Part shown: in pieces, positions 1-38,065 of the stretch
Position numbering within the stretch: the stretch's first letter is position 1
Layout of the letters: the number at the start of each line of letters is the position of its first letter
Source of the DNA: Candidatus Falkowbacteria bacterium
GTDB taxonomy: Bacteria; Patescibacteriota; Patescibacteriia; UBA11705
Length of the DNA: 64,000 nucleotides
Reading direction: 5' to 3'
NCBI GenBank assembly: GCA_003518055.1
Contig: DOZJ01000002.1
Coordinates: 235,097-299,096, forward strand
Notes under the pieces: model-generated
What the model was told of the DNA's origin: nothing
What the model saw: the letters and a program-made list of their open reading frames with translations, nothing else
The model's database searches: none
Program-made: the position numbers and the translations under genes

Positions 1-314
1 TTTGATATTTAAAATATTATACGGTTATGGTTTCGATCGCAGCGTCATTTACAGGAGGGCAAATATAATTACACAGATGTTGATGACAATAAAGGTTTTG
101 AAAAATAAAGGCTTGTATTTTTCTCGCAGGAAAAAACTGATAATGATTGACAGCGGGGGAACCAAACAAATCGCCGGTAGCCAAAAATTTGGTGTGAAAA
201 AAAGCCGGTATGTGTTGAATCCAGTAGTATAAAACAACAAGAGTAGAGGCACGCATCCGATAATTGATACAAGATAAAAAGCATTTTTCATAGGATTAAG
301 CAATATCGAAATTA

Positions 315-1664
315 TTAACTGATGAGTGGCAAATTCGCGATTGTCTCGATCGCCTGAACATCCAAACCCTCAACCTTGAGATTTTTCATTCTTGGAATTA
401 TCGCTTTGGTGAAACCCAGCTTTTGCGCTTCCTTTAATCGTTTTTCCAAATTAAACACCGGCCGGACTTCGCCGCCGAGGCCGACTTCGCCGAGAATAAT
501 CGTGTCTTTTGGCAAGGTCAAATTTCTATAGCTCGAAATGATCGCTGCGACCACGGCCAGATCCAAGGCCGGATCTTTGGTTTTGATGCCGCCGACAATG
601 TTCAAATGAATATCTTGGTTTGATAAATTTATTTTAGCGCGTTTGGTTATCACGGCCGCGAGCATTTGCAGCCGGTTGATGTCATAGCCGGCGGTTTTCC
701 GCTGCGGATAACCGAATGGCGTCATGGAAACCAACGCTTGAACCTCCAACAAAAAAGCTCGTGAACCTTCGATCAAACATGAAACCACCGAGCCGGATAA
801 ATTTTGCAGATTTTCACCCAAAAATATTTTGCTGGCATTGGCCACTTCTTGCAGGCCTTTGTCCGTCATGCTGAAAACGCCGACTTCATTGGTTGAGCCG
901 AAGCGGTTTTTTACCGCCCGCAGCATCCGATAGCCGTGATATTTGTCGCCTTCGAGATAGAGAACCACATCAACCAAATGTTCGAGCGTTTTGGGTCCGG
1001 CCACTACGCCGTCCTTGGTCACATGACCGGTCAAAATAATCGGAACGCCCAAAGTTTTAGCCGTTTCCAACAGTTTTACCGTTACCGCCCTGATTTGATT
1101 GATGTTACCGGCTTCTCCTTCAACTTCTGCTGAATGAATCGTTTGAATCGAATCAATAATGGCCAGGCTGGGGTTGAGCGCGGTAATAGCGGCTATAATT
1201 TTTTCACACTGCGTTTCGCCCAAAAATTTCATTTGCTTTGGCGTGAAGTTCAACCGGTCAGCCCTGAGTTTTACCTGTCCAGCGGATTCTTCGCCTGATA
1301 TATATAAGGTCGGCCGGTTGAAAGTTTCAAAGGCCCGGAAGATTTGGAGCGCCAAAGTTGATTTCCCGATACCCGGTTCGCCGCCGAGAAGAATTAAACT
1401 GCCCGGCACCACACCGCCGCCGAGGACTTGATCCAGTTCATTCAGGTTGGTGCGCTGGCGGCTGATTTTATCTTGCGTTACCGTCGAAAAATCTTGCAAT
1501 TGTCCCAGATCAAACTTGATCGCCGCGGCGCCCGGTTTTTTATTGTCCGCCATTTGCTCTTTTAGTGTACTCCAGGCGCCGCACGCCGAACAACGCCCAC
1601 TCCACTTGGAGAATTGGGCGTCGCATTTGGCGCAGGCAAAGATTGTTTTAGGTTGAGGTGTCAT
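315..1664 (-). CDS. radA: DNA repair protein RadA/Sms
   Basis: N-terminal C4 zinc finger (CAKCDAQFSKWSGRCSACGAW), Walker A GEPGIGKST, KNRFG motif and a C-terminal Lon-protease-like domain. The length (449 aa) is typical for RadA. Confidence 0.95.
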   Translation of the reverse strand: MTPQPKTIFACAKCDAQFSKWSGRCSACGAWSTLKEQMADNKKPGAAAIKFDLGQLQDFSTVTQDKISRQRTNLNELDQVLGGGVVPGSLILLGGEPGIGKSTLALQIFRAFETFNRPTLYISGEESAGQVKLRADRLNFTPKQMKFLGETQCEKIIAAITALNPSLAIIDSIQTIHSAEVEGEAGNINQIRAVTVKLLETAKTLGVPIILTGHVTKDGVVAGPKTLEHLVDVVLYLEGDKYHGYRMLRAVKNRFGSTNEVGVFSMTDKGLQEVANASKIFLGENLQNLSGSVVSCLIEGSRAFLLEVQALVSMTPFGYPQRKTAGYDINRLQMLAAVITKRAKINLSNQDIHLNIVGGIKTKDPALDLAVVAAIISSYRNLTLPKDTIILGEVGLGGEVRPVFNLEKRLKEAQKLGFTKAIIPRMKNLKVEGLDVQAIETIANLPLIS

Positions 1665-3241
1665 GATGTCCCGAAATATTTTTTAACATTTTCTTCAACC
1701 TTTTCTTCCCACTTATCGTTAAATTTGCATAAAGCATCCGCTTTACCTCCAGAGGTATAATGCGGGGCGTTTGATAACCCCAACTTTGACCAGTCGAAAT
1801 TTCTTGGATCAGTATGGCCGCTAGAACTTTCACAATGTGCCCTGATATGAGCGTTGTCAATGGTAACGTTTGTCCGTGTACTGATTTGTAATAATAAATT
1901 ATTCAAACTGATATACTGTGCCGGAGCCAAGGCTAGGTTACACTTGCGTCGGGCTGCCTCTGGACTGTCACAGCCTGGGAATTTGGCTTTTATTACTTCA
2001 CCGGTTTTTTTGTTTTTGAAATAATAAAATCCTTCCTTACAAGCTTTAACGCATTCATCGATTCTGCTATAAATCCATGATGTCGATAATGATCTTTGAA
2101 GATCAATTCCGATCGAGACTTTGTTCCATTTTGTATTTGCGTGGTGGGCTATTTTTGACTCATCAACAAGTTGATAAATCGCTCCTGATGTTTCGATCAC
2201 ATAATGCGAAGATATGCATGCCCCCGGTGTTACCCCACCCCGCAGACAATTTCCGTGCCAACCATTCGCCGTCGCAGCCGCCCCTCTGCCAGTATCGTGA
2301 AGGATAACATATGAAACTTCGGATCTGTCTCTTTCATAAAACGTATCACAGCCGAGAATATTAATTAGATTCTTATTCCCACTACCATCCCCAACTGGAG
2401 GGGATTTTTGGCAAGTCGTGTTGTGGGCGGTCAGTGAGGATTCGGGCACAGCATCGGATGGAATTGGGGCGCTGTTCTCTTCTGTATGAAATTCTTCTCC
2501 GGCTTGTAATTCCAGTTCAACAGCATCTATCAATTCAAGATTGATGGATTGAATGTTCACTAAATCCGGATTAATATTAACCAATATAATATATGAAGAA
2601 AGTAAAATAATTAATCCAAACAAAGACGAAAAAATAAACTTTTTTCCACTCGACACCAAGCCAGGGTTTGCCCCAGCCGAAAGGATCAGAATACCACCGA
2701 CGATTATCATCAAAATCGCGAACATGGCTCCGAGCATAAAGCCGTATTTATATAATCCAACCACGCATTGGCCGATCCAATTAAATGCCGCGGTGGCACC
2801 AAGGCTGCTCTCGACCGGCTGGAGATTGCAATACGAGCCTATGACTGGAAGGTTCGGAGGATTGAATATTACTTTTTCCCCTTCGTCAGTCTCGGCCGGC
2901 GTGTCAGTCGCAGCCGGTGTCTGACTGCTGTCCAAAGGGTAAAGATTTTTTGTTTCGGTCGTTTTGAAGCAGTAATTCAAACTATGAGATGACGTGTCGC
3001 CGGTTTTGCACTCCCAATCAGCCTCCGCGCCGCCATAATCGGTCGCGCAATTCGCAGCGGTCTGGCAGACGCAAAATTGGTTGTCTTTAGCTGTTAAATC
3101 GCTCAATTGGCACTTGTTTGATTCACACTCGGCACCGGTCAAATCCGCGCACGGCAAGCCGATTTTAGTGGCCCCGGCCTCAACCGCTTGGGGCAGGAGA
3201 AATATCACTGCGGTGAAAATAGCCAAAATAAAATTGCGCAT
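1661..3241 (-). CDS. Secreted fusion of a Cys-rich two-TM VirB2/TrbC-pilin-like N-terminal region to a C-terminal N-acetylmuramoyl-L-alanine amidase (Amidase_2/PGRP-like)
   Basis: Signal peptide MRNFILAIFTAVIFLLPQAVEA, a Cys-rich region, then two adjacent hydrophobic helices (CVVGLYKYGFMLGAMFAILMIIVGGILIL and FIFSSLFGLIILLSSYIIL). The C-terminal part carries Amidase_2-like motifs (ILHDTGRG, NGWHG, SSHYVIETSGAIYQLVDE, AHHAN, SIGIDLQ). Its stop overlaps the radA start by 4 nt (ATGA). Confidence 0.7.
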   Translation of the reverse strand: MRNFILAIFTAVIFLLPQAVEAGATKIGLPCADLTGAECESNKCQLSDLTAKDNQFCVCQTAANCATDYGGAEADWECKTGDTSSHSLNYCFKTTETKNLYPLDSSQTPAATDTPAETDEGEKVIFNPPNLPVIGSYCNLQPVESSLGATAAFNWIGQCVVGLYKYGFMLGAMFAILMIIVGGILILSAGANPGLVSSGKKFIFSSLFGLIILLSSYIILVNINPDLVNIQSINLELIDAVELELQAGEEFHTEENSAPIPSDAVPESSLTAHNTTCQKSPPVGDGSGNKNLINILGCDTFYERDRSEVSYVILHDTGRGAAATANGWHGNCLRGGVTPGACISSHYVIETSGAIYQLVDESKIAHHANTKWNKVSIGIDLQRSLSTSWIYSRIDECVKACKEGFYYFKNKKTGEVIKAKFPGCDSPEAARRKCNLALAPAQYISLNNLLLQISTRTNVTIDNAHIRAHCESSSGHTDPRNFDWSKLGLSNAPHYTSGGKADALCKFNDKWEEKVEENVKKYFGTS

Positions 3242-3242
3242 A

Positions 3243-4514
3243 TTATTTTAATTTGATTTTATGCACCGTATTTGTCTGCTTGTCAGTAAAAAACAAGCTG
3301 CTGCCGTCTTGGCTCACCTGCATCTGATTTATCGTATATTCGAATTCCGGTTCGGCAATAAAACTGGTGGCTCCGGTGTTGACATCGACTTTATAAATAT
3401 TATCAGGTTCATTGTCAGCCAGCTCCGGAAACCAACCGGCGCCTTCAGGCATTATTTTTGGCACGGCGCAGTACATGGTTGACGCGTTCGCAAAGGTGCA
3501 TTTATCAGCCCAAGTATTAAGGTTGATTTTTTTATGGTTATAACCGATCGCGTCAGGTGAAGCATCGGTCACATAGAGCTGCGGCTTGTTTTCAGACACA
3601 CTGTTGTGCGCGCTGTAAACCATTTTGTCGCCATCAGGATTGAATTGGAGCTGCACGCCAAATCCATTGACGTCAAGCGAGCGATAATTTTCATTGTTTG
3701 GCCCGATAAAATACAGAGTATTGAACTCGCCGCTGGTCGCTTTTTCGTAAGTTGCGATAATTTGATTATTCGGAGACCAGTTGACTTTGACTTTATTATC
3801 TTTGTTGCCGAGAAACTCGACATATTTTTGGCCGGAGCCGTCGGCGCTCGATGTCCCGATAAACCGTTTATCCACATTGGCGTCCATATCTTTGAACGCA
3901 ATTTGGCTTTCGGTTGATGAGAAATCAAAATCAGTCCAGTTGGCCGGCAGCGTAGTTTGAGTTTGAGTTTGAAAATTATAAAGCACATTGGTGCCGTCAG
4001 GAAATTCCATTATGGCTTTTTCAGAGTTTTCAGCCCAAGTAATATTTTTAACTTCGGGAAATCGTCGTTCACTCAATAAGGTCTTTTTCCCATTGCCGTC
4101 GATGCGGTAAAATTGGTCGGTGTCTGAATTGTAGCTCATCAGGTTGTTACCGCTGGCATCAAGACTCATGAACGGGGTAATGCTTAAATCCAAATCGGTG
4201 ATTGATGTTACTCCGCCCGCCGCTGTCTCGGTTGTTGTCTCGGTTGGGATATTCGCCGGTCGGCGCGTTATCAGGCTTTCGGTCACTCCGGGGACTTCCG
4301 GTCCTGTCGGTCCGGTTTCCTCGCCTTTTCTTTCTCCTGAGAGTGGGAGGTCAGACAATTCTTCGGGCGTTAATTCCTCCGGTCCGACCTCTATGACCGG
4401 CCCGCGAAAAAACAAATAATAAATCGCGAACGCGAGGGCTCCAGTGATCAGGATAAAACCAATAACCATGAGGATTTTTTTTAGAGTCAGGATCGGCAGG
4501 TTGAAATTGGGCAT
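3243..4514 (-). CDS. Membrane-anchored TolB-like/PD40 beta-propeller repeat protein
   Basis: N-terminal TM helix (ILMVIGFILITGALAFAIYYLFF), a Pro/Glu/Thr-rich linker, then repeated WSPNNQ/FNPDGDKMVYSA-type beta-propeller blades. It sits 1 nt upstream of the amidase gene, so the two are probably in one operon. Confidence 0.6.
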   Translation of the reverse strand: MPNFNLPILTLKKILMVIGFILITGALAFAIYYLFFRGPVIEVGPEELTPEELSDLPLSGERKGEETGPTGPEVPGVTESLITRRPANIPTETTTETAAGGVTSITDLDLSITPFMSLDASGNNLMSYNSDTDQFYRIDGNGKKTLLSERRFPEVKNITWAENSEKAIMEFPDGTNVLYNFQTQTQTTLPANWTDFDFSSTESQIAFKDMDANVDKRFIGTSSADGSGQKYVEFLGNKDNKVKVNWSPNNQIIATYEKATSGEFNTLYFIGPNNENYRSLDVNGFGVQLQFNPDGDKMVYSAHNSVSENKPQLYVTDASPDAIGYNHKKINLNTWADKCTFANASTMYCAVPKIMPEGAGWFPELADNEPDNIYKVDVNTGATSFIAEPEFEYTINQMQVSQDGSSLFFTDKQTNTVHKIKLK

Positions 4515-4570: not shown

Positions 4571-5275
4571 TTAGAGAAACCATGATTTCAAGAGATCAAA
4601 CAACGCTCCGGTTAAGGCGACCGCACCAATTGCTAGCGCTGCCCCCAAAATTATAATAAACCAAAGGGGAAAACTGCAGCCACAGCAAGTCCCACCCCCG
4701 CAGCCGAGTGAAAGAACCAACCTCAAAATCATTCTTTTTACAAATTGTTTTTTCTTTTTTTCCTCATTGGCCGCGGCCAATTGAAGGTCCGGTTCATCGT
4801 CCATCATTTCCGGCATTGATTCGGTTTCCTCATTCTCATCTTCAAAATCCGGTTCAGTCATTTCCTCTTCTTGTGGTTCTTCTTCGTTGTTTAATTCAGG
4901 ATTTGTTTGTTGTTGTTCCTCCCTTTTGTCCCTTCGCGCGCGGCGCAGGGTGCTTTCAATGCTTTGGGGGCCGGCCGCGTCAAAGGATGCTGGAGTCATA
5001 GGTGCAAAACCGGCTTCGTTTTGGTTTTTTATGCGGTTGATGGGTTGTTCTGAATTGATTTCAGGAACGCGGAACTGAGGTGCGGGGGTGGGCGCTTCAA
5101 GTCCGGTTTTTTGTCTCGCCAACTTGGATGTGCGATCTTGATTCAAAAGCGTGGCATACAGTTGTTCCGATGCGGTTGGTTTGGTCGGTCTTGAATTTTG
5201 ATTAACCGGCGGCGGTGTTTGATTTATTTGTGGGTTTGTTTGCGCCATGTTAAGTAAATTTGAGTGGCCACACAC
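4571..5275 (-). CDS. Hypothetical C-terminally membrane-anchored protein with an acidic low-complexity region and a CGGGTCCGC motif
   Basis: Long ORF with a Glu/Asp-rich segment (EPDFEDENEETESMPEMMDDEPD) and a C-terminal TM helix preceded by a Cys cluster. The true start is probably the internal MAQTNPQIN at about 5248. Confidence 0.45.
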   Translation of the reverse strand: MCGHSNLLNMAQTNPQINQTPPPVNQNSRPTKPTASEQLYATLLNQDRTSKLARQKTGLEAPTPAPQFRVPEINSEQPINRIKNQNEAGFAPMTPASFDAAGPQSIESTLRRARRDKREEQQQTNPELNNEEEPQEEEMTEPDFEDENEETESMPEMMDDEPDLQLAAANEEKKKKQFVKRMILRLVLSLGCGGGTCCGCSFPLWFIIILGAALAIGAVALTGALFDLLKSWFL

Positions 5276-5309: not shown

Positions 5310-7694
5310 TTAGGTGATTTTTTGCAGTTCCTGATCAAGATGTTCGGTCAGAATTTTTTCGACCGAACGAGCTCCGATGTTCATCTCAAGACATTTGGCT
5401 GCCATGCTGTCGATTAGAGTTTGATCAAAATTAATAATTAGTCCTTGCTTTTCCAGTTTAAGGTTTTTGTTTTTCCATTTGTTTTTTAAGATTTTTTTCA
5501 GCGTTGTTTTATCCAGATGGTCAAAGAAGATTGTTTGATCAATCCGGTTGACGAATTCAGGCCGAAAAGATTTTTTCACTTCATCTAGCACGGATTCTCT
5601 GGCGTCACCGGCCCGGTCGCCGGAGCCAAAACCGAGAGACGTATTTTTTTCAAATCGTCGCATGCCGATGTTGCTGGTCATGACGATAATGGTGTTTTTA
5701 AAATTTATTTTTTTGCCGGTCGCGTCGGTCAAATGTCCATCTTCGAGAATTTGAAGCAGCAAATTCAAAACATCCGGGTGGGCTTTCTCGATTTCATCGA
5801 ACAAAACCAAAGAATACGGTCGTTTTTTGACTCCGTCGGTCAGTTTGTTGCCCTCTCGGTAACCTATATAGCCGGCCGGCGCGCCGATCAGTTTGGAGGC
5901 ATTGAATTTGTCGCTGAATTCAGACATGTCAATACGAATAAAGGCTTCAGCATCCTTGAAAACCCTTTCCGCCAGTTTTTTGGCTGTGTATGTTTTTCCC
6001 ACGCCGCTTGGACCGAGGAATAGAAATGAACCAAGCGGTCGATCCGTATCGGTTAAACCGGAGTAAGACCGTCGGAGGTGAGTGATGATTTTATCAATCG
6101 CCTGATCCTGTCCGATGACCTCTTTTTTGATTTCCTGTTGAATTTTTCGCAGGAGATTTAGCCGCGACAATTGCAAGTCGGCCAGCGGAATTTTGGTTTT
6201 CTGCGCCACGACTATGATTATATCTTCTTTGGCAATGATCGGCGGCTGGTCCGTTAGGTTTTGCAGCAAACATTTTTTGCGGTCGGTAAAAGCGAGCAGT
6301 AGATCTTTTTCCTGTTTTTTTATTGTAATGGCCAGATTAAAGTCCTCACTATCGATGGCCTGTTTTTTTTGCAATCGGAGTTCGGTCAGTTGGCTTTCCA
6401 TCAAGGTTAAATCATCAAAATCTTTATTTTTTTGCCGGTTGATTTTCTTGGCGGCCGCCGCTTCGTCCAATAGATCAATGGCTTTATCCGGCAGCAATTT
6501 GTCCTGAATATATTGAACGCTGAGATCGATTGCCGCCTCGATCGCCTCAGGTGAAAATTTTACATGATGGAAGCGCTCATAATTTTCAGCAATTCCGGTT
6601 AAAATTTCGTGGGCTTCTTCCACTGTCGGTTCATTGAGGTTAATCGCTTGGAACCGGCGTTCGAGCGCCGGATCTTTTTCAATAAACTTTTTATATTCTT
6701 CATGAGTAGTGGCTCCGATGCAATGGAGTTCTCCTCGAGCCAAGATTGGTTTCAGCAGATTTGCGGCGTCCATTGTCCCTTGGGATGAACCCGCTCCCAC
6801 GAGATTGTGAATTTCATCGATGAAAACAATGACGTTTGAGTCGTTTCTCACTTCATCAATCATGGCTTTGATTCGGCTTTCAAAATCTCCGCGATACATG
6901 GTTCCGGCAATCATGGAGCCGAGGTCGAGCGATAAAATCTTTTTATTTTTGAGACTGTGAGGCACTTCTCCGAGCAGGATTTTTTTGGCCAGACCCTCAA
7001 CCAGCGCAGTTTTACCAACACCGGCGTCTCCGAGAATTATAGGATTGTTTTTATCCTTTCGCGACAAAATATGGATCATCCGTTCCAATTCGGTTTCCCG
7101 ATTGATCACCGGATTCACGTTGACTTGGAAATTTTTATCAGTGAGATTGGTAGCAAAAAAATCAAGCACTCGGCGCGGCGCCGCGAGGTCATCCATGTCG
7201 TCGGTCTCGATTGAGTGATCATCTGTCCCATTGTTGAGGGCTTTGGTTAGATCAGGGAATTTGGAGTTGCCTTTGAGCATGGACTCAAGCTGGCCCTGCA
7301 TTTTTTTGAGCGGCAGCCGGTAAAGTTTAATCATGTAATCAAGCTCAGCCGGTGGATTTTTGAGCAACACAAACAAACAGTGCTCCGTGCCCAAATGCAA
7401 ATGCTTGTGCTGCCTCGCCAACTGCATGGCTTTTAACAGCAAATCTTTTGTGTCTTTTATTTCGCCCTGATCGTTTGGCTTTTGGTGAGATTTGTCCAGT
7501 AGCACCTTGCGCACATCATCAATCTGCAGTTTTTGCTGAGCCAAAAAATCATAAGCCAGACTTCCGCGGTGACTGAAAAGCGCCACCAAAAAAATATTGA
7601 GCGGAACCTCTTTGAGGTTTGACTTTTGGGCCAAATGCCCAGCCTCTCGGATGCAGGCGAGTAGATTGTCGGAAAATTTATCGGTTATGTTCAT
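5310..7694 (-). CDS. clpC: ClpC/ClpB-family AAA+ ATPase chaperone (two nucleotide-binding domains)
   Basis: Clp N-domain repeats at the N-terminus. NBD1 has Walker [19 protein letters not shown]2 has [15 protein letters not shown], and the sensor/arginine-finger regions are present. The length (794 aa) fits ClpC better than ClpB. Confidence 0.85.
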
Positions 7695-8058: not shown

Positions 8059-8943
8059 CTATCTCCCCATTTCCCGCAGCTTTTTCACACGGTCAGTAAT
8101 CGGCGGGTGAGTGGAAAATAAATGGCGGATTTTTGAATCTTGGCCAAAAAACGGACTGGCGATATAGAGGTGGGCGGTGGCCGAGTTGGCTCGCCGCATC
8201 GGTTGATGATAGGTCGAAATTTTTTCCAAGGCGCTGGCCAAACCTTCGGGGTATCTGGTCAAAAGCGCGCCGCTGGCATCAGCCAAAAATTCTCGGCGGC
8301 GAGAGACGGCCAGTTGAATCATTTTCGCGATCAATGGTGACAAAACCATCAGAATCAATCCGGCAATCATGATGATCGCGCCGGCATTGCCTTTGTTGTC
8401 TCGGCTGCGTCCGCTGAGAAAATTCATTCTGAGGAATATGTCGCTGAGCAGCGCGATGAAACCGACGAGCACAATGACGATCATCATCAGGCGAATATCA
8501 TAATTTTTAATATGACCAAGTTCATGCGCTATAACTCCCTCGAGCTCTTCATTTTCCAACGTGTTAATAATGCCCGTGGTGACGGCGATTGAAGCGTGCT
8601 GTGGGTCTCGGCCGGTGGCAAAGGCGTTTGGCGCCGGGTCGTCGATAATATAAACTTTCGGCATGGGCATCCCGGCGGTGATCGTCAGATTTTCCACCAT
8701 GTTCCAAACATAAGTGTTATCATTTTTGGTTATTTGTTCGGCTCCGGCCGTCGTCAGCGTGATTTTATCTCCGCTGAAATAGCTCACCCCCGCCATGACC
8801 AAGGCGATAACCCCGGCGATTATCAGCGCGTCAATACCATAGCCCATTTGATAAAAAACAAAACCGATCGCCAAGACAAAGGCGACGAATAGTACCATGA
8901 GCAGGATGGTTTTTCGATTATTTGAATCTATCTCGTTATACAT
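8059..8943 (-). CDS. htpX: Zinc metalloprotease HtpX (peptidase M48)
   Basis: N-terminal TM helices, the HELGHIKNYD zinc-binding motif and the overall HtpX architecture (294 aa). Confidence 0.9.
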   Translation of the reverse strand: MYNEIDSNNRKTILLMVLFVAFVLAIGFVFYQMGYGIDALIIAGVIALVMAGVSYFSGDKITLTTAGAEQITKNDNTYVWNMVENLTITAGMPMPKVYIIDDPAPNAFATGRDPQHASIAVTTGIINTLENEELEGVIAHELGHIKNYDIRLMMIVIVLVGFIALLSDIFLRMNFLSGRSRDNKGNAGAIIMIAGLILMVLSPLIAKMIQLAVSRRREFLADASGALLTRYPEGLASALEKISTYHQPMRRANSATAHLYIASPFFGQDSKIRHLFSTHPPITDRVKKLREMGR

Positions 8944-8953
8944 ATATTATTTT

Positions 8954-9010
8954 GTCACCCTGAGGCTCTCGAAGGGTAACGACATGCTTCGAGTGCCTCA
9001 GCATGACAAG
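8954..9010. repeat. Dispersed palindromic intergenic element containing the shared 13-mer TTGTCATGCTGAG (copy 1, reverse orientation)
   Basis: GTCACCCTGAGGCTCTCGAAGG...CTTCGAGTGCCTCAGCATGACAAG forms a long imperfect hairpin. The same 13-mer core recurs at 9674-9707 and 48984-49035. Confidence 0.6.
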
Positions 9011-9098
9011 AAGCGTGTTTGTCACCATGCTTGCCCCGCTGGATTGTCCTGCGGGGAACTTGCCTGCCGTAACGATAGTGTAGGCGAGTTATTAGTAA

Positions 9099-9662
9099 TC
9101 ATTTAAACACTTTCGGCGGTAATTTTTTTGGCCACTGACCAGTTTCCCTTTGCATCGCGATTTTCCACAGCAGATCACCGACGCGACCGTTGCCGTCTTC
9201 AAATGGATGAATCTCTTCAAATTCCTTGAAATAATCAGTTGGAGTTAGTGGTGGCCGACCCCAGTCGTCAGGATCGGTTGAAAATCCGTCTCGCAGCTGC
9301 TCCGCCAGCGCCGTACAAAGAGTTTCCATGGCTTGGGAGATTTTCGCTGGCTCGAGAGCAAATTTTCCATTCGCGAATCCCGCGGGAACTCGACGGAAGC
9401 CTTTTTTATTTCTTGGGTCGGTCAATTCAGCCCAATGTAGTATCATAACTAATAAATCATCTGCTGTTATGGTCGCAAATTTTTCTCCTGAGGCGAACAT
9501 TCTCTTGGCTTGAGCATACGCGGCGGCAAAGCCCCGTACATCGTCATCTTCAATCGCGTTTTGCTGTATACATTGCTTGATTATCAATCTGATGTCCGTC
9601 ATGGTTAAATCATCAGGGAATTTTAGATGTGTATAGGTTTTTTCGGGTTTGGGTCGTTCCAT
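9099..9662 (-). CDS. Fic/DOC family protein (putative adenylyltransferase/toxin-like)
   Basis: Canonical Fic motif HPFEDGNGRVGDL in a 187-aa protein. Confidence 0.8.
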   Translation of the reverse strand: MERPKPEKTYTHLKFPDDLTMTDIRLIIKQCIQQNAIEDDDVRGFAAAYAQAKRMFASGEKFATITADDLLVMILHWAELTDPRNKKGFRRVPAGFANGKFALEPAKISQAMETLCTALAEQLRDGFSTDPDDWGRPPLTPTDYFKEFEEIHPFEDGNGRVGDLLWKIAMQRETGQWPKKLPPKVFK

Positions 9663-9673
9663 ATAATTTTTTT

Positions 9674-9707
9674 ACCCTGAGCCGGCCTGCCGGCTCAGCA
9701 TGACAAG
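9674..9707. repeat. Dispersed palindromic intergenic element (copy 2, reverse orientation)
   Basis: ACCCTGAGCCGGCCTGCCGGCTCAGCATGACAAG is a hairpin sharing the CTCAGCATGACAAG core with copy 1 and, in reverse complement, TTGTCATGCTGAG with copy 3. Confidence 0.6.
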
Positions 9708-9845
9708 AATAAATAGTATACAGTCATCAATGATGCGGACACGCAGCTGCTGCCTATCCGCACGCTTTATAACTATATCGGCTTGAAAGTCTTTAGCCTA
9801 TCAAGTTTTTGTAACGTTTCGTAATTTTTTGTAATTTCGTAACCC

Positions 9846-10400
9846 CTAAAACTCAACCTTAACATTTTCTTTTTCCGTCGCATCAGCCTCAAAGAATTCA
9901 TACTTCTTGAATCCGAGCAGTCCAGCTACCAAATTGTTCGGGAAAATCTGAACCTTGGTGTTGAAATCCCGGACGTTACCATTGTAGAATCGGCGTGCCG
10001 CTTGGATTTTATTCTCGGTATCGGAGAGTTCATCTTGCAGTTTCAAAAAGTTTTGATTGGCTTTTAGATCAGGGTAAGCTTCGGCCAAAGCAAAGATTGA
10101 TTTCAAGGTTTGTGACAGCATATTTTCAGCTTCACCCTTGTCATGAGCACCACTCGCGTTCATAGCGTTGGTGCGGGCTTCGGTCACTTTTTCAAAGGTC
10201 GCGCTTTCGTGGCTGGCATAGCCTTTGACCGTATTCACCAGATTTGGTATCAAATCATAGCGGCGTTTGAGCTGAACATCAATATCTGACCAAGCCTCAT
10301 CGGTCCGATTTTTGAGCTTGATCAGGCCATTGTAAATGCCAATGAGCCAGAGCGCCACCACGACCACTACGGCTAGAACAATATAACCTAATTTGTCCAT
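9846..10400 (-). CDS. lemA: LemA family protein
   Basis: N-terminal TM helix plus the LemA signature (NGLIKLKNRTDEAWSDIDVQLKRRYDLIPNLV ... RRFYNGNVRDFNTKVQIFP). Confidence 0.9.
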   Translation of the reverse strand: MDKLGYIVLAVVVVVALWLIGIYNGLIKLKNRTDEAWSDIDVQLKRRYDLIPNLVNTVKGYASHESATFEKVTEARTNAMNASGAHDKGEAENMLSQTLKSIFALAEAYPDLKANQNFLKLQDELSDTENKIQAARRFYNGNVRDFNTKVQIFPNNLVAGLLGFKKYEFFEADATEKENVKVEF

Positions 10401-31674: not shown

Positions 31675-34600
31675 TTGCTTATGGCCTATGAAGTCTCGGC
31701 TGTTTCAACGCTGGGAAATAATCACGAACACCGAGAAAATTCAACTGAAAAAATAACCAAGCCCGAGGCCGGTCTCGAGCGTGATATTTTGGCACTCAAC
31801 CAAAAAGTAGAAGCTGAGTTTCGTCGAGTCAAGCAAGCTTTGGATCGAGTTGTGGCCGGATCTTTGGTCGAGATAGCTCCCAGTCAGCCGCGAGCTGATG
31901 TTGTTTTTGATTCAATCAGGCAGGATCTGGAATCAATGAAACAATCAATGACCGATATCACCGCCATGAAATCACCGGATGTTTTGGCCGCTCAGTTGAC
32001 GGAGATCAATCAGAAGCTGGCGGAGTACAGTGGGTGGCAGGAACAGCAAGCTGAAGCTGCCGCAGCCTTGTCGTGGGAGTTGGAAAACCAACAAACAAAA
32101 ATTGCCGACCTTGAAGTAGCGTTGGAATCGGAGCGACAAAGAAATTTTTTTGTTAGACCGTTTAGAGAAAAAAACCGTCAGCGACTGGCTGCTGCTATCG
32201 ATGAGGCGAACAAAGTCAAAACCGCGTTATACGCCCGGCGTCAGGAAATCAAGCATCAAATTCATCAGCTGCAAGATTCATTGTATGAATTAGACAATCT
32301 TCGCCGTGATTTTGCGCCTCAGACATTAAAACTGAGTTTGGAGCAAGTAAAACAAAATTATTTGGAGCTGCAGTCCAAGCTGACGTCATCGGAAGCCAAA
32401 CAACAGATGAACCAATACTTAATTGAGAATGAAGTCCGGCCTGATCTCGATCGGGCTGTAGCTGATGGCGAAATTACCGAGGCCGCGGCATCAGAGTTTA
32501 TTCAACTTCTTTCCGCTGAGGTTGTTCAGGGGTTCACCAATTTGGTTTTTGGGATGTCACGTGAAGTCGGAGATGAAATTCAGCACCGTAATGAGCGGTT
32601 TCGCCGGCTGGAACAAAAAAAACCGACCTATATTTTTGAAACCTTACGGGCCAAAATCAGCGACCAATCAAGAGGGGTGGCTCCCGACGCTTATTTTAAT
32701 CCGATTATCGCTTATTTTTTGCGTAATTTATATCGCCGGCACACGTCGGAGCTCAGCTCCTCCGCCGCGGTTTTGAGCCAGACCGGTTGGATTACTTATG
32801 ATCATATTGTTGACGATGCAGACCGTGGTTTTGATTTTGAATTAGATAATCAGTCGGTTTTGCCGGCCGCGCGAAGTTTGGTCCAATCGGAGGGGCTTAT
32901 ACGGCTTAGATCGGTCGGACGCTTTTTGATCGATTCCGGTGTATTAACGCCGGCAGAATTCGAGGCGGAGCGCCAAAAAATGTATCGCGAGATTCTGGAT
33001 CACAATTTATCACCGGAGCCGAGCGATGATAAGTACGATGAAATTAATCGCGGAGCCAAAAAATTAGAAGAACTCAGTGATGTTCGACTGGTGCCCGAGC
33101 TGCTCACAAAAATTCAAGATCAAGCATATGATTCCAAAGACCCGATTCACGATCATTGCTTGGGCAAGTTGACTGATCTTTTTTCCTCCCTGCTTGGATC
33201 AGCCAAACCGGAAGAGGTATCAGCTGTTATGCAGAAATTGGAACCCCAGCAGAGAGAACTGATCTCGCTGATCATGGATAAAACGTCTTTTGCTCATACT
33301 TTTGGTAAAATCAGGAACGTTGTCAGGCATGGCGGCGAAGTTCTAGCCAAGGAAAAGCGTTTCCGGTCTTTGAAAGAACTTGGTTGGGAAACGCCGGATT
33401 TATTTGCTTTGTATGAAATGCGGTTGGCGCGTGGGCGCGATCTGAATTTACTGGTTAAAAGCGCGAATGATCTCGGTGAAAATCCCAAAGAAGTTATTAC
33501 TGCTCAGCTGGGAACAATCAAACGGAAATGGTTCAACCTGTCCGATGTTGATCGCCGCCAAGCAGTTGAGCTGCTGGCTCCGATCTTGGGGGAGAAACCA
33601 AAAGATTTATTTTTGACTTTTGTTCATGATCGGTTCAAACCGGCGGAGAGTCCGACCGACAAAGATCCTCTCGTCGCTTATTTGGCGACTATGCATGAGT
33701 ATGATGAATTGTTGGCGGTGATTGAGCTTTTTGATCAGGACAAAGAGAATTTTATTCTGCGGAATTTGTCCGTAATCGTTGAGCGAATGGTCTTGACCCA
33801 CGTGCGGCCGGAAACCCAAAAACGCGCCATTATCCGAATCGGGCAGGATCTCGGGTGGTCTGAAGCCCAAGCGATTGCCATCTGTTTGCCCCAGATTCTC
33901 CAATCTCAGTTGAAGTTTGAACGCAACACGGTCAAATCAAAGGGGGTTCAGGAATATCTGAAATTTTTTATCGCCGGTCAAGATTATGGCGAGCTGGTCG
34001 CCAAATTACTTGGCTTTCATCTGCAGGTTGAGGCGGAAAATTTAGATCGCGCCACTCGGATGGCCGCCGCTGTCGACACACCGGAGATGGTTGAGGCGAA
34101 AATAAAACAGGCCTCCGGTTTGGCCATGTTGGCTATCGACGGCGCTGAGCAATTTACCGGCCGGCTGGTGGCTGAGTATCGCGGCGGCCGTGAAGATGAT
34201 GAAGTTGTCTCGCGGTTAATGTCCCTCTATTCTTTTCTCCGTGATTTTGAAAGCCGGCAGAATCATCATGAATATACCACCAAACTGGAAGCTATCGTTG
34301 TCGGCGGCAAGATCAGCGGACTTCAATCAATGTATGAATCGGTCAGCGCGAATTTTCAACAGATGGTGAATGAAGCACCGCGGCTTTTCGCTGACGTGGC
34401 TGATCGGGAAATGTGGATTGAATTGGTTGGTCCCGACCGCATCAAGGAATTTCTTGATCGGCTGCCCAAGTCGTCGGATGAAAAACGCAACGCCCTTACT
34501 CACAATCAATATGATCGCACCTCAATTTTCCTGTCTTCCCTGATGAGCAATCTTAAATTTTCTCCTTTATTTGAAGGTGAAAGTGAAGTGGTTCTCGATC

Positions 34601-36150
34601 AGGACGATTTCTCCGTTATTTCCAGTTTTGTGGAAAAATTTGGGCTGTCCAATACCCCATTGTTATTTCGTTATTTTCGTAATTTGGTCCGACTAGAAAA
34701 ATCAGGCACGCCGCTGCCAGCGGAGCAGGTGGCCGAGGGCATAATTTCGCTGGAAGTCTTAGATCAGAAAATGAGAAAAATTAAATCGTCTTTGTTATCG
34801 TCCAAGCCGATTATGGACATTGATATAAATCAAATGACCGCAGTCGAATTGGAAATGTTCAGCTTCCTCACCGGCAAAAGCCGTCACCGCTTTGATAGTG
34901 GTCGGCCGAGCTTGGAGCAGATTATCCGTGATTGGCAGTCAAATCGTGAGGCCGGTTCGGTAGCTGAAAAGCCGGATGCTTACGGTGAATTTACGGAAAC
35001 CATTCCGCGAGTAAAAATTATATTTGATAAAGAAAAAGTGCGCTCCAGTTTTGAGATTATTCAACAAGATATTTTGGCAGCTATGAAAGATTCGGCTGAT
35101 ATATCATCGGTCACTCCGCGCGCTCAAGCGGTTCTCAATCAAAAAATCAGCGATCTGCGGGAGATTTTGGCGCGAAAACCGGATAACAAATTCATTGCCC
35201 AGCAGCTCAGCCACTATGAAATGATGGCCGGTCGAGTCAACTCGGCGGCGGATATTGATAGCTTAATCGAAGTTTTGGTTTTGGCTGAACGCGGCTTTGC
35301 TGCCAAAAGTGAACTCAGTTCGATTATCAGAGAACTTTTATTCCGAAAATTATTTACGGTTAATTTCTCCGGTGATGCCATCCGCCAGATGGCCGCGACT
35401 GTTGATGGCGATGTGACCGGAGTGGGTATTCTAAATGTAATTAATTTGGTTGACCGATTTGTCAAAGACCATGTATTGAATTTAGCTAAACATAACGAAG
35501 AAAATTATTGGAGTGCCGGTGCTTGGCGGGCAATCAATGACGCCAAAGACAATTCCAAACAGGTTGATGTTACAAAAATTTTCAAAACCGAACTGGACGT
35601 GCTCCGTGCCGAGGTCGGCAACTTTATTTTGGAGGATTCTGATAAGCCGGTTGAGGTCAAGATGATTCCGGATCGAGGTTTGGTGGGGGAGATGTCCGGT
35701 TATTTGGCTGATGTATGTTACACCAAGGAATACCCGCTGCTCACCGCCTATCCGAATATGGTGCCATATAAATTTGTGGCTGAAGACAAAGCATCAAAAG
35801 AGAGAAGTTTGGTTGGTTCAGTTTTGGTTTTTGAGTTGACGGCCAAGGATGGTGATAAGGTAATGCTGGTCCGCGGATTTGATGTTCCGAATGAAAGTGA
35901 TTTTGATATCGGAACGTTTATTGAAAAATTCTTAGATAATTTGGAACCGGTCGCCAGACAGCGCGGTATTAACAAAATTTTGGTTCCGGGCAGCAGCGGC
36001 GCCATCTCGAATTATGGGATGACCCTATCATACATTCAATCAAAATTTATCAATGACAAAAGTCCGGTTTCGCTCGATGGGTTTTTTAATTTTAATGGCT
36101 ATAACCTGACTGATAATTGCTATCTGGCGCGGACAATTGAGATTAAATAA
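31675..36150 (+). CDS. Giant protein A (1491 aa) of a three-member paralogous family, with a shared C-terminal domain
   Basis: No signal peptide. The N-terminal third is coiled-coil rich. The C-terminal about 230 aa align with giant B (IPDRGLVGEMSGYLADVCYT / GSVLVFE / ...RTIEIK versus IPDRGFAGELSGYYGEACYT / GSVLFIE / ...RTIK). The likely ATG is at 31681. Confidence 0.7.
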   Translation: MLMAYEVSAVSTLGNNHEHRENSTEKITKPEAGLERDILALNQKVEAEFRRVKQALDRVVAGSLVEIAPSQPRADVVFDSIRQDLESMKQSMTDITAMKSPDVLAAQLTEINQKLAEYSGWQEQQAEAAAALSWELENQQTKIADLEVALESERQRNFFVRPFREKNRQRLAAAIDEANKVKTALYARRQEIKHQIHQLQDSLYELDNLRRDFAPQTLKLSLEQVKQNYLELQSKLTSSEAKQQMNQYLIENEVRPDLDRAVADGEITEAAASEFIQLLSAEVVQGFTNLVFGMSREVGDEIQHRNERFRRLEQKKPTYIFETLRAKISDQSRGVAPDAYFNPIIAYFLRNLYRRHTSELSSSAAVLSQTGWITYDHIVDDADRGFDFELDNQSVLPAARSLVQSEGLIRLRSVGRFLIDSGVLTPAEFEAERQKMYREILDHNLSPEPSDDKYDEINRGAKKLEELSDVRLVPELLTKIQDQAYDSKDPIHDHCLGKLTDLFSSLLGSAKPEEVSAVMQKLEPQQRELISLIMDKTSFAHTFGKIRNVVRHGGEVLAKEKRFRSLKELGWETPDLFALYEMRLARGRDLNLLVKSANDLGENPKEVITAQLGTIKRKWFNLSDVDRRQAVELLAPILGEKPKDLFLTFVHDRFKPAESPTDKDPLVAYLATMHEYDELLAVIELFDQDKENFILRNLSVIVERMVLTHVRPETQKRAIIRIGQDLGWSEAQAIAICLPQILQSQLKFERNTVKSKGVQEYLKFFIAGQDYGELVAKLLGFHLQVEAENLDRATRMAAAVDTPEMVEAKIKQASGLAMLAIDGAEQFTGRLVAEYRGGREDDEVVSRLMSLYSFLRDFESRQNHHEYTTKLEAIVVGGKISGLQSMYESVSANFQQMVNEAPRLFADVADREMWIELVGPDRIKEFLDRLPKSSDEKRNALTHNQYDRTSIFLSSLMSNLKFSPLFEGESEVVLDQDDFSVISSFVEKFGLSNTPLLFRYFRNLVRLEKSGTPLPAEQVAEGIISLEVLDQKMRKIKSSLLSSKPIMDIDINQMTAVELEMFSFLTGKSRHRFDSGRPSLEQIIRDWQSNREAGSVAEKPDAYGEFTETIPRVKIIFDKEKVRSSFEIIQQDILAAMKDSADISSVTPRAQAVLNQKISDLREILARKPDNKFIAQQLSHYEMMAGRVNSAADIDSLIEVLVLAERGFAAKSELSSIIRELLFRKLFTVNFSGDAIRQMAATVDGDVTGVGILNVINLVDRFVKDHVLNLAKHNEENYWSAGAWRAINDAKDNSKQVDVTKIFKTELDVLRAEVGNFILEDSDKPVEVKMIPDRGLVGEMSGYLADVCYTKEYPLLTAYPNMVPYKFVAEDKASKERSLVGSVLVFELTAKDGDKVMLVRGFDVPNESDFDIGTFIEKFLDNLEPVARQRGINKILVPGSSGAISNYGMTLSYIQSKFINDKSPVSLDGFFNFNGYNLTDNCYLARTIEIK

Positions 36151-36153
36151 AAT

Positions 36154-36951
36154 ATGATTTTAATTTATTTGTTTATTATTTTATTCGGTTTGGCAATCGG
36201 GAGTTTTCTCAATGTGCTGATTTTCCGTTTGCCGGAGCCAGCGTCAAAGTGGATAAAATTTAAACGTTCAGTTTGTCGATTCTGCCGCAAGGTACTCACG
36301 CCACTGGAATTGATTCCGGTGTTTAGCTTCTTATCGCAGAAAGGCCGATGCCGGTCGTGCGATGAAAAGTTATCATGGCAATATCCGGCCGTGGAGCTGT
36401 CAACTGCGGTCATATTTTTGCTGCTGGCATTTATTCATCTCTCTTCTTTGTCCGATATTTCAGCCGAAAGCGTTGCCTTCCTAATCCGCGATATGTTCAT
36501 TGTATCGGTTCTGATTCTGGTTTTTGTTATCGATGTCAAGCATTTCTTGATCCTTAATAAAGTTATCTATCCGGCTTTGGTTGTGGTTGCTTTGTTCAAT
36601 ATTTATCTGTTGGATTTTAATCTAAAGAAAATACTGGGGATTGTAATCGGCGCCGTGATCGGCTTTTCCTTTTTTGCCTTCCAGTATTTTTTTTCCAAAG
36701 GCAAGTGGGTCGGCGGCGGCGATATGAAATTCGGCGCCTTGATCGGCTTGGCGCTCGGCTGGCAGGGGATGATCACCACCTTGGTTTTGGCTTACGTTGG
36801 CGGCGCCATATTCGCCGTGGCGTTGTTGATATCGGGCAAGGCCAAGTTCGGCGCCAAACTGCCAATGGCCGCGTTTCTGGCTCCGGCTGCTTTGGCGGTT
36901 TTGCTCTACGGCGAAAATATTTGGTCTTGGTACTTTAATTTATTTATTTGA
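36154..36951 (+). CDS. pilD: Prepilin peptidase (A24 family, type IV pilin leader peptidase/N-methyltransferase)
   Basis: N-terminal Cys-x-x-Cys ... Cys-x-x-Cys zinc motif (CRFCRKVL ... CRSCDEKL), multiple TM helices, and a catalytic Asp region GGGDMKFGALIG. Confidence 0.85.
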   Translation: MILIYLFIILFGLAIGSFLNVLIFRLPEPASKWIKFKRSVCRFCRKVLTPLELIPVFSFLSQKGRCRSCDEKLSWQYPAVELSTAVIFLLLAFIHLSSLSDISAESVAFLIRDMFIVSVLILVFVIDVKHFLILNKVIYPALVVVALFNIYLLDFNLKKILGIVIGAVIGFSFFAFQYFFSKGKWVGGGDMKFGALIGLALGWQGMITTLVLAYVGGAIFAVALLISGKAKFGAKLPMAAFLAPAALAVLLYGENIWSWYFNLFI

Positions 36952-37054: not shown

Positions 37055-37465
37055 ATGGATAACCAAACAATAATAAAAAAAGACAATGGGACGGCTTACA
37101 TCCAAGATCCATTATCTAAGATAGTTATTGGGATTTGTTACGAGATTTTCAATTCTATTGGTCCGGGGGTGCGCGAAAAATATTATGAAGACGCTGTAGA
37201 ACACAAATTCAAGAAACGGGGGGTGATTTATCAGAGGCAATTGAAAGTGGACATAAAACTTGACGGTGAAAAAATAGGTTTTCGTCGATTGGATTTTTTG
37301 GTGGAAAAACGTCTCGTTGTGGAATTGAAAATTGGTAATTATTTGTCTCAAGCTGAGTTCAATCAAGTAAAAGAGTATTTAAAAATAAATAATTTGAAAT
37401 TAGGTTTAATTATTCTATTTACCACTCATGGTGTTAGAGTCCGTCGGGTGGTGAATTTATCTTAG
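37055..37465 (+). CDS. GxxExxY protein (PD-(D/E)XK nuclease superfamily)
   Basis: Matches the GxxExxY family signature (GVREKYYEDAVEHKFKKRG) and the conserved later E-x-K-like region (RRLDFLVEKRLVVELK). 136 aa. Confidence 0.7.
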   Translation: MDNQTIIKKDNGTAYIQDPLSKIVIGICYEIFNSIGPGVREKYYEDAVEHKFKKRGVIYQRQLKVDIKLDGEKIGFRRLDFLVEKRLVVELKIGNYLSQAEFNQVKEYLKINNLKLGLIILFTTHGVRVRRVVNLS

Positions 37466-37516
37466 TACAGATGCAGGTAATATAGATATACCGTTTTGAA
37501 AATATTTATTTATCAG

Positions 37517-37527
37517 TATATCTGTAC
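37517..37527. repeat. Right inverted repeat (GTATATCTGTA) of the GxxExxY cassette
   Basis: Exact reverse complement of TACAGATATAC found twice on the left flank. A further direct AGATATAC lies at about 37484. Confidence 0.6.
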
Positions 37528-37548
37528 AATCTGTAACCGTAAAAGTTT

Positions 37549-38064
37549 ATGAAACTAAAATTTAAAAACAATCTGATCAATTACGGTTTTGTCACGCTAT
37601 TGATTCTAATTGTGGCGGCCATGGTGGTTGTCAATGTAAAAGATTATCAGTCGGTCCAACTGGTCAAGGCGGAAATGCAAAAGTATGGTGAGTCTCTGAC
37701 CGTAGCGCGGGTAAAAGCTTTGGCCGGAGAAAGATTCAAGGAGTTTGAGCAGATTCCATTCGCCTATGGCTTGTATTTCAACAACGATGAGCAATCTTTG
37801 GTTGTCTGCGCTGACATGAACGGCGATTTTGACTGTGTTTTGTCTGAATTCGTTCAAACTGAAAAGCTCTCAGATCAAATCAAAGTCAATGAGTTCCACA
37901 CCATCAATTTTTTGAAATACAAAACCGTTGACGGTGTGTGTCTGGACGACAACTGCGATCTTGGCGGTGAGTTATTGGTCGCCGAATTCGCGCGCAAGGA
38001 TAAACCCGAGATCATCAGCCAGATGTTTTACGACGCCGATAATAGTCGATTTGTGATCGAGTGA
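37549..38064 (+). CDS. Hypothetical membrane-anchored protein
   Basis: N-terminal TM helix (GFVTLLILIVAAMVVVNV). 171 aa. Confidence 0.45.
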   Translation: MKLKFKNNLINYGFVTLLILIVAAMVVVNVKDYQSVQLVKAEMQKYGESLTVARVKALAGERFKEFEQIPFAYGLYFNNDEQSLVVCADMNGDFDCVLSEFVQTEKLSDQIKVNEFHTINFLKYKTVDGVCLDDNCDLGGELLVAEFARKDKPEIISQMFYDADNSRFVIE

Positions 38065-38065
38065 T

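Follow-up and report, generated by a model that had tools for sequence, protein, structure and literature searches.

A predicted membrane-tethered wall hydrolase with a VirB2-like hairpin, encoded between a beta-propeller gene and radA in Candidatus Falkowbacteria and related Patescibacteria

A pilin-like hairpin joined to a peptidoglycan amidase

The 64 kb of contig DOZJ01000002.1 analysed here (the window) comes from a metagenome-assembled genome (MAG) of Candidatus Falkowbacteria, an ultra-small groundwater bacterium of the Patescibacteria, or candidate phyla radiation (CPR). Near its start, three adjacent minus-strand genes encode a membrane-anchored beta-propeller (here named prop), a 526 aa protein (the middle protein) and the recombination protein RadA. 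The middle protein combines a two-helix hairpin, homologous to that of the VirB2-like pilins of Patescibacteria type IV secretion systems (T4SS; Pfam PF18895), with a C-terminal peptidoglycan amidase. In relatives, different peptidoglycan hydrolases are found on the same hairpin at the same locus, from which we conclude that the hairpin serves as an anchor or targeting module that can be reused. The components are of known kinds; what is new, as far as the searchable literature shows, is a VirB2-like hairpin as the carrier of swappable hydrolases, and no paper describing this architecture was found there. The three genes are:

3243 to 4514, minus strand: prop, membrane-anchored 7-bladed beta-propeller, 423 aa
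1661 to 3241, minus strand: middle gene, PF18895-type helical hairpin anchor plus Amidase_2 peptidoglycan amidase, 526 aa, predicted exported
315 to 1664, minus strand: radA/sms, 449 aa, with a C4 zinc ribbon, a RecA-like ATPase with the KNRFG motif and a Lon-like C-terminal domain

The close packing described in the first-pass annotation of this DNA was confirmed when both junctions were read from the sequence. The middle gene and radA share a 4 nt ATGA overlap ('...ACA TCA TGA' and 'ATG ACA CCT'), and a single nucleotide separates prop from the middle gene (TAA-T-ATG in 'AAA TAA T ATG CGC'). Such spacing suggests that all three genes are transcribed together. The middle protein matches the hypothetical protein DF272_02130 of a Candidatus Falkowbacteria MAG with 100% identity. 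Its parts are:

3176 to 3241, minus strand: signal-peptide-like N-terminus, residues 1-22, from hydropathy (putative cleavage after '...LLPQAVEA', before G)
2969 to 3151, minus strand: Cys-rich ectodomain segment, 8 Cys in residues 31-91, with a model confidence (predicted local distance difference test, pLDDT) of only 55-84
2507 to 2869, minus strand: conserved core, residues 125-245, comprising an amphipathic segment, transmembrane (TM) helix TM1, a short basic loop and TM2, from phmmer and hidden Markov model (HMM) searches
1802 to 2323, minus strand: Amidase_2 domain, residues 307-480, with zinc ligands H315, H469 and D478 and a ~55 aa Cys-bearing insertion

Hydropathy gave hydrophobic stretches at residues 1-24, ~159-197 and ~201-228, and the AlphaFold model contains two long helices (154-188 and 193-223; pLDDT ~95). 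Together with the Pfam matches, these bear out the initial description of a signal peptide, a Cys-rich segment, two TM helices and a C-terminal Amidase_2 domain. A Cys-rich model, Dickkopf_N, is matched by some relatives. The middle protein therefore appears from its sequence to be exported and held in the membrane by the two-helix hairpin. In the predicted topology the N-terminus is outside, the short basic loop inside and the C-terminus outside, and the model would place the amidase domain on the outer face of the membrane, on a disordered tether of ~60 residues.

Relationship of the hairpin to PF18895 pilins

A full-length, word-indexed homologue search with the middle protein yielded only four relatives, and the hairpin family surfaced only via synteny around prop and an exhaustive search. 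Homology among relatives is confined to residues ~125-245 in both phmmer and HMM comparisons. PF18895 is matched by 35 of the 44 positional homologues, with a best E value of 1e-11, and by 80 of the 100 nearest library representatives. When the conserved core was used as a profile, 367 proteins were retrieved out of 5.8 billion, nearly all of them PF18895 proteins of 110-230 aa; matches to the small PF18895 pilins had E values of 1e-9 to 1e-30, and some of these proteins also match TrbC (PF04956). The exhaustive search with the hairpin core returned 10,262 representatives at E<=1e-3, and the top 150 are mostly 250-900 aa. The matches of the locus homologues, the core-profile retrieval and the exhaustive search together establish that the hairpin is homologous, at the level of the family, to the VirB2-like pilins of Patescibacteria.

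The proposal of a pilin-like N-terminal region thus stands for PF18895, at family level, and not for classical or solved VirB2, to which no link could be detected. The middle protein had no match to PF04956 (TrbC/VirB2) even at E<=10. A Foldseek search with its whole model returned amidase-domain matches only and is uninformative on the hairpin, which is too simple a structure.

In the literature, PF18895 is treated as a small T4SS pilin of ~110-150 aa, encoded in arrays and often beside virB4 (Quinonero-Coronel et al. 2025, PMC12102498). Beyond the sequence homology, these pilins (PMC12102498; Wang et al. 2023, PMC10633639) share with the middle protein a signal peptide and a pair of hydrophobic helices with a short basic loop between them. 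However, the hairpin described here is part of a 526 aa protein, with a Cys-rich domain N-terminal to it and an enzyme C-terminal to it. A single copy was found in the window when open reading frames (ORFs) of >=50 aa were scanned with the core HMM, and neither the scanned window ORFs nor the clusters of conserved neighbours included a VirB4, VirB6 or VirD4 family. The hydrolase-fusion subfamily also differs in its non-T4SS operon and in an additional near-invariant INPxL motif. A match to PF18895 alone is consequently not an indication of a T4SS pilus, and annotators should take note; in this family the 'T4SS pilin' fold has found a second use, in anchoring to the membrane or in targeting.

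The INPxL motif lies at the outer end of TM2 (residues 223-227; window 2561-2575, minus strand) and reads INPDL in the middle protein. N224, P225 and L227 are nearly invariant in the hydrolase-fusion subfamily (alignment A3), and the motif is missing from the consensus of the small PF18895 pilins. Its role may be to cap the helix, to mark a site of processing or to mediate an interaction. Tandem hairpins also occur, with three to four separate core matches in single long relatives (P0245, P0246, P0248 and others), and P0245 additionally has an SLT domain. A genuine T4SS context for small PF18895 pilins was seen in L088 (5305-18423), where five PF18895 genes, one of them encoding 760 aa, adjoin PrgI-like, TraC-like and VirB4-like genes.

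The amidase domain and its replacements

The match of residues 307-480 to Amidase_2 (PF01510) is secure (E 5e-16; 59.6 bits against a gathering score of 26). H315, H469 and D478 align with the zinc ligands of AmpDh2 and of T7 lysozyme, and this H-H-D triad is retained in 7/7 amidase-type homologues. As the ligands are present and conserved in all seven, the domain is probably a catalytically active zinc N-acetylmuramoyl-L-alanine amidase. The model of the domain is of moderate quality (pLDDT ~80), and Foldseek matched it to AmpD (2y28; 2e-4), the endolysin amidases 6srt and 6ssc, T7 lysozyme (1lba) and peptidoglycan recognition proteins (PGRPs). The domain thus shares its fold and zinc ligands with the AmpD/AmpDh2, T7 lysozyme and PGRP amidases, and differs from them in being tethered by a pilin-like hairpin and in the ~55 aa Cys-containing insertion. 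Relative to T7 lysozyme, the insertion occupies residues ~385-440 (window ~1922-2086, minus strand), and it is common to the homologues in L007, L004 and L022.

Among the 44 hairpin proteins encoded at the related loci, the recognisable C-terminal domains are nearly all peptidoglycan hydrolases, but the type varies: Amidase_2 was found in seven, C39_2 in four, VanY in four (with overlapping matches to M15_4 in three and M15 in three), SLT in three, Phage_lysozyme in two, M23 in two and GDSL in one. The recurring domains of the 100 nearest library representatives are almost all of the same kinds, with NlpC/P60, Glucosaminidase, 3D and Amidase_5 in addition.

The propeller protein

prop is the most conserved member of the cluster: 322 homologues were found, and at least 582 species genomes have a relative. 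Residues 1-100 comprise a TM helix and a disordered linker, and the remainder of the model is a 7-bladed propeller of 28 strands (pLDDT >94). The model suggests that the propeller faces outside, tethered by the single helix and the flexible linker. The helix is:

4407 to 4484, minus strand: N-terminal TM helix of prop, residues 11-36, without the canonical prepilin G-F-T-L-x-E motif

The closest structural matches are the tricorn, oligogalacturonate-lyase and S9-peptidase propellers and generic WD40 proteins. Homologues of prop have faint PD40 matches, and some are entered in one source under the label 'Tol biopolymer transport system component'. The first-pass annotation had likewise called the protein TolB-like, an identity that we reject in favour of a generic propeller: there is no TolB_N domain among the Pfam matches, and TolB is not among the best structural matches. 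Both are extracytoplasmic beta-propellers, but the TolB-type PD40 propeller has six blades where prop has seven, and the neighbours of prop are clpC, htpX, lemA and radA rather than Tol-Pal genes. Patescibacteria are monoderm (PMC12857230).

RadA and its linkage to clpC

The identification of radA was upheld. Residues 6-442 match TIGR00416 with 539.5 bits, well above the curated cutoff of 403.05, and the full domain set is present (Zn_ribbon_LapB at 9-36, AAA_25, and ChlI/Lon_C at 341-432). The translation contains the motifs 'CAKCDAQ...CSACGAW', 'GEPGIGKST' and 'VKNRFGS'.

Further upstream of the trio, on the same strand, are the following:

4571 to 5275, minus strand: gene for a tail-anchored Cys-cluster protein between clpC and prop, 234 aa, acidic and of low complexity, conserved in position
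5310 to 7694, minus strand: ClpC/ClpB-type double-AAA+ chaperone, from Pfam (AAA_2, AAA_lid_9, ClpB_D2-small) and synteny
8059 to 10400, minus strand: conserved upstream neighbours htpX (M48 peptidase; 8059-8943), fic (9099-9662) and lemA (9846-10400)

The order of the Bacillus subtilis operon is ctsR-mcsA-mcsB-clpC-radA-disA, so that there too clpC and radA belong to a single co-directional block and radA is co-regulated with protein-quality-control genes. The CtsR regulon of B. subtilis includes radA and disA (PMC10633939). The Falkowbacteria locus differs in that three envelope genes sit between clpC and radA and in that no ctsR, mcsA, mcsB or disA was seen. As the clpC-radA linkage is old in Gram-positive bacteria, the position of radA in the window is best regarded as partly inherited from that arrangement, and its adjacency alone is weak evidence for a role in DNA uptake. 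However, prop, with or without the hairpin gene, and radA are kept together where pilM rather than clpC is upstream, indicating that the propeller-hydrolase-radA unit is itself conserved.

Conservation of the operon in related genomes

To 80 fetched loci, annotated using the window proteins and those of one relative, L004 was added, giving 81 loci, of which 62 had enough sequence downstream of prop to be informative. In 40 of the 62, radA is downstream of prop on the same strand, and one or two PF18895-hairpin proteins are encoded between them in 29 of these 40, with spacings mostly of <=25 nt or overlapping. Across ~1.2 Mb of loci the hairpin HMM matched only in the slot between prop and radA. 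The gene order of the trio, which the first-pass annotation had left to be checked, is therefore conserved.

The co-directional block around the trio consists of lemA, htpX, clpC, the tail-anchored Cys-cluster protein, prop, dsbA in some loci, one or more hairpin-hydrolases, radA and in some loci a DNA glycosylase gene. Its upstream part, lemA-(fic)-htpX-clpC, precedes the trio in the window. The block is flanked by opposite-strand genes: upstream pgm, joined in some loci by a bactofilin-like gene, and downstream recG, a gene of no known type and comFC. The operon is conserved in Falkowbacteria and in related Patescibacteria (Kuenen-, Uhr- and Buchananbacteria, which form GTDB class ABY1). A large CPR lineage has kept the hairpin-hydrolase genes of the prop slot in one operon with radA and the gene for an anchored propeller.

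In 20 related loci a DsbA/thioredoxin-like gene is found directly downstream of prop, and before the hairpin gene in those that have one (for example L006:2317-2952, L054:11321-12058 and L082:9548-10189). It is absent from the window. Its presence beside prop fits with the Cys-rich ectodomains of the proteins encoded at the locus.

The product of the 234 aa ORF between clpC and prop had no significant family match in HMM library scans. It has the Cys cluster CGGGTCCGC just ahead of its C-terminal TM helix. Counterparts in L007 (8818-9885), L011 (8243-9967), L018 (8519-9955) and L022 (9228-9929) have kept their position and diverged in sequence, and ~10 of the related loci examined share the same design: a long acidic or low-complexity N-terminal stretch, a Cys cluster and, directly after it, a single C-terminal TM helix. 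The clusters include CGGGTCCGC, CSSCSSCC, CCLCSSCCCAC and CCNPCC.

Type IV pilus and comFC genes next to prop

In ~37 of the 81 loci, prop is divergent from pilM, ~100 nt away, and the pilM cluster there includes PilN/O-like genes, one or two copies of pilB (T2SSE), pilC (T2SSF) and pilins, as identified with Pfam. The type IV pilus cluster in L075 (990-15687) is an example of this head-to-head arrangement. Downstream of prop, within 0-145 nt, 18 of these pilM-type loci have a comFC-like gene and 11 have radA, the latter with or without the hairpin gene. The comFC-like product consists of a zinc ribbon and a phosphoribosyltransferase, and thrS is the next gene in many of the 18. comFC is also found 4-7 kb from radA in the loci arranged like the window. 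In a rough neighbour-joining tree lacking support values, the pilM-adjacent loci form one nested clade in which radA and comFC alternate several times, and the window-type arrangement is basal. In L046 the pilus cluster is upstream of the whole lemA-htpX-clpC-prop block. Given the single nested clade and the arrangement in L046, adjacency to pilM may stem from few events.

The window itself offered little of this kind when searched for the com and pilus genes that a DNA-uptake module might be expected to have nearby. Pfam scans of its ORFs found no VirB4, VirB6, VirD4, comEC or dprA family, phmmer found no homologue of pilM, pilB, pilC or comFC, and no T4SS, com or pilus-assembly gene is beside the trio or in the 10 kb beyond radA. 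A single gene of this class, for the prepilin peptidase PilD (36154-36951), is present among the scanned ORFs, 32 kb from the trio.

Function of the locus

Our preferred interpretation, to which we give an even chance of being correct, is that the locus encodes a membrane-tethered wall hydrolase and a propeller that act as a pair and are co-expressed with radA; within it, housekeeping remodelling of the wall is ranked slightly above service to a pilus or DNA uptake. The amidase would cut stem peptides from the cell's own wall near the membrane. Expression of radA would be coupled to that of the hydrolase by translation through the ATGA overlap, and in relatives that have the gene the DsbA-like product would serve the disulfide-rich ectodomains of the propeller and hairpin proteins.

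Several observations weigh against this interpretation or parts of it. Taken alone, the middle protein scores only 17.2-18.5 bits against PF18895 (E 0.002-0.006; cutoff 26.6). A search of all PDB sequences with the hairpin profile gave chance TM matches only, and an hhalign comparison with Agrobacterium tumefaciens VirB2 was not significant (probability 0.3). In ~20 of the 44 locus proteins the C-terminal region has no recognised domain. The hairpin-hydrolase gene is missing from every comFC-type locus, hence prop and the hairpin-hydrolase are not obligate partners, and the part given to the propeller, as a scaffold, regulator or substrate-binding component for the amidase, is pure conjecture. 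The recurrent neighbours (type IV pilus cluster, comFC, radA and recG) suggest a DNA-related role more specific than housekeeping. Co-transcription is judged from spacing only, and a scan for promoters and terminators was uninformative, as sigma-70-like sites and terminators were rarer than in shuffled controls; one sigma-70-like site falls within the end of the upstream gene.

A tentative alternative, which we consider somewhat less probable, is a modified form of the original DNA-uptake idea, in which the locus encodes an accessory of a type IV pilus or natural-transformation apparatus. The propeller would be associated with the pilus, at the envelope or the tip, by analogy with PilY1 or Saccharibacteria PilX2; the tethered hydrolase would make a gap in the wall through which the pilus, or DNA on its way in, could pass; and the imported single strand would be processed by RadA, or by ComFC in relatives. 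The pilM, comFC and radA neighbours of prop described above favour this, as does the likeness of prop to PilX2 of Nanosynbacter lyticus TM7x, which also has a hydrophobic N-terminal helix lacking a canonical PilD site and a 7-bladed propeller, and which is needed for the function of T4P-2, the type IV pilus whose locus contains recAX (PMC12206443). In many relatives prop also adjoins pilM-pilB-pilC, with recombination genes nearby. In the CPR, com genes and type IV pili are conserved and competence has been demonstrated (PMC10633639). However, the pilM-adjacent loci, all in one clade of an unsupported tree, may reflect a single rearrangement; the copy of prop in the window is away from pilus genes, with no pilM, pilB, pilC or comFC homologue to hand; and the hairpin-hydrolase is missing from the loci where comFC follows prop. 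Compared by description only, PilX2 is reported to be RCC1-type, whereas prop resembles the PD40/tricorn and S9-peptidase propellers. RadA, moreover, is a general recombination helicase.

Because the N-terminal region does resemble pilins and the gene order is conserved, the DNA-uptake module proposed in the first-pass annotation survives, but only in part. The type IV pilus, comFC and radA neighbours in relatives lend it circumstantial support, which is guilt by association and attaches mainly to the propeller protein; no T4SS genes were seen among the scanned window ORFs or the conserved neighbours, and the adjacency of radA is partly inherited.

A bolder synthesis, which we hold more tentatively still, is that the repurposed VirB2-like hairpin and the propeller form a wall-breaching unit for an envelope machine, co-regulated with RadA or ComFC and coupled to pilus-mediated capture and recombination of DNA. 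Patescibacteria are unable to make nucleotides and are dependent on envelope machines, namely type IV pili, Com proteins and unusual pilin-bearing T4SS, which are essential or important in their epibiotic life. For the crossing of the wall by these machines, recognised VirB1-type hydrolases are mostly missing. The widespread family of VirB2-like hairpins with swappable hydrolases supplies concrete candidates for this step. If the synthesis is right, the unit cuts the cell's own peptidoglycan or that of an attached host, is the CPR counterpart of the competence-linked murein hydrolases and is perhaps the 'missing VirB1'.

That the middle protein is a component of a T4SS encoded elsewhere is unlikely. 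Its hairpin would co-assemble with VirB2-like pilins and supply the VirB1-type lytic function that is missing from most T4SS loci of Patescibacteria, or, in a variant, the protein would itself be a pilus subunit with an enzyme head. The homology of the hairpin to PF18895 pilins, which elsewhere are in arrays beside VirB4, PrgI and TraC, is consistent with this, and the hydrolases of monoderm T4SS, PrgK (pCF10) and TraG (pIP501), are membrane-anchored multi-domain enzymes (PMC12102498). Like VirB1 of diderms, these are wall hydrolases; PrgK and TraG are membrane-tethered and probably clear a local path through the wall for a machine that spans the envelope, and some relatives at the locus have SLT or M23 domains as they do. 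However, PrgK and TraG have a single N-terminal TM helix with SLT, CHAP or LytM domains and are encoded inside T4SS clusters, whereas the middle protein has a VirB2-like hairpin with Amidase_2 and no T4SS neighbours that we could see. The hairpin-hydrolase subfamily is confined to the prop-radA slot, extensions of 300-800 aa would be hard to fit in a VirB2-type filament, and classical and solved VirB2 gave no significant match. The conjugative picture first drawn for this locus was not sustained: neither the scans of the window, nor the 10 kb past radA, nor the conserved neighbours showed T4SS genes among the families that could be named. A conjugative-type pilus is therefore unlikely, and we do not read this as a T4SS pilus locus.

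Least probable of all is an offensive or lysis enzyme, of holin-endolysin or fratricide type and perhaps phage-derived, that attacks the wall of a host or neighbour for its nutrients and DNA: the swapped domains (Amidase_2, phage lysozyme, M15, M23, SLT and NlpC/P60) do mirror endolysin modularity, holin and signal-arrest-release designs resemble the layout of two TM helices plus a lysin, and pneumococci offer, in the competence-induced murein hydrolases CbpD and LytA, an earlier case of lysins regulated together with transformation genes, but in dozens of genomes the locus sits stably in a housekeeping part of the chromosome, free of phage genes, the ~60-residue linker tethers the enzyme to the producer's own membrane, and the hairpin matches PF18895, with no holin family among its Pfam matches. 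A phage origin was rejected, as a tblastn search of 50,697 phage records returned no match.

Other features of the window

An 84 aa, very hydrophobic ORF with a TTG start (49-303, minus strand) begins 11 nt past the radA stop codon; it had no family match and was not called by the gene caller used for the same genome. No tRNAs or Rfam elements were found in the window. Three very large plus-strand ORFs (31675-36150, 40995-44642 and 45645-48581; 1491, 1215 and 978 aa), none of which reached the cutoff of a Pfam family, surround the PilD gene, ligA and ddl. Their products may be CPR-specific surface proteins. Between pilD and ligA (37055-38662, plus strand) are a PD-(D/E)XK nuclease-like gene, a 171 aa ORF and an IS200-like Y1 transposase gene, which may have been inserted as a small mobile element.

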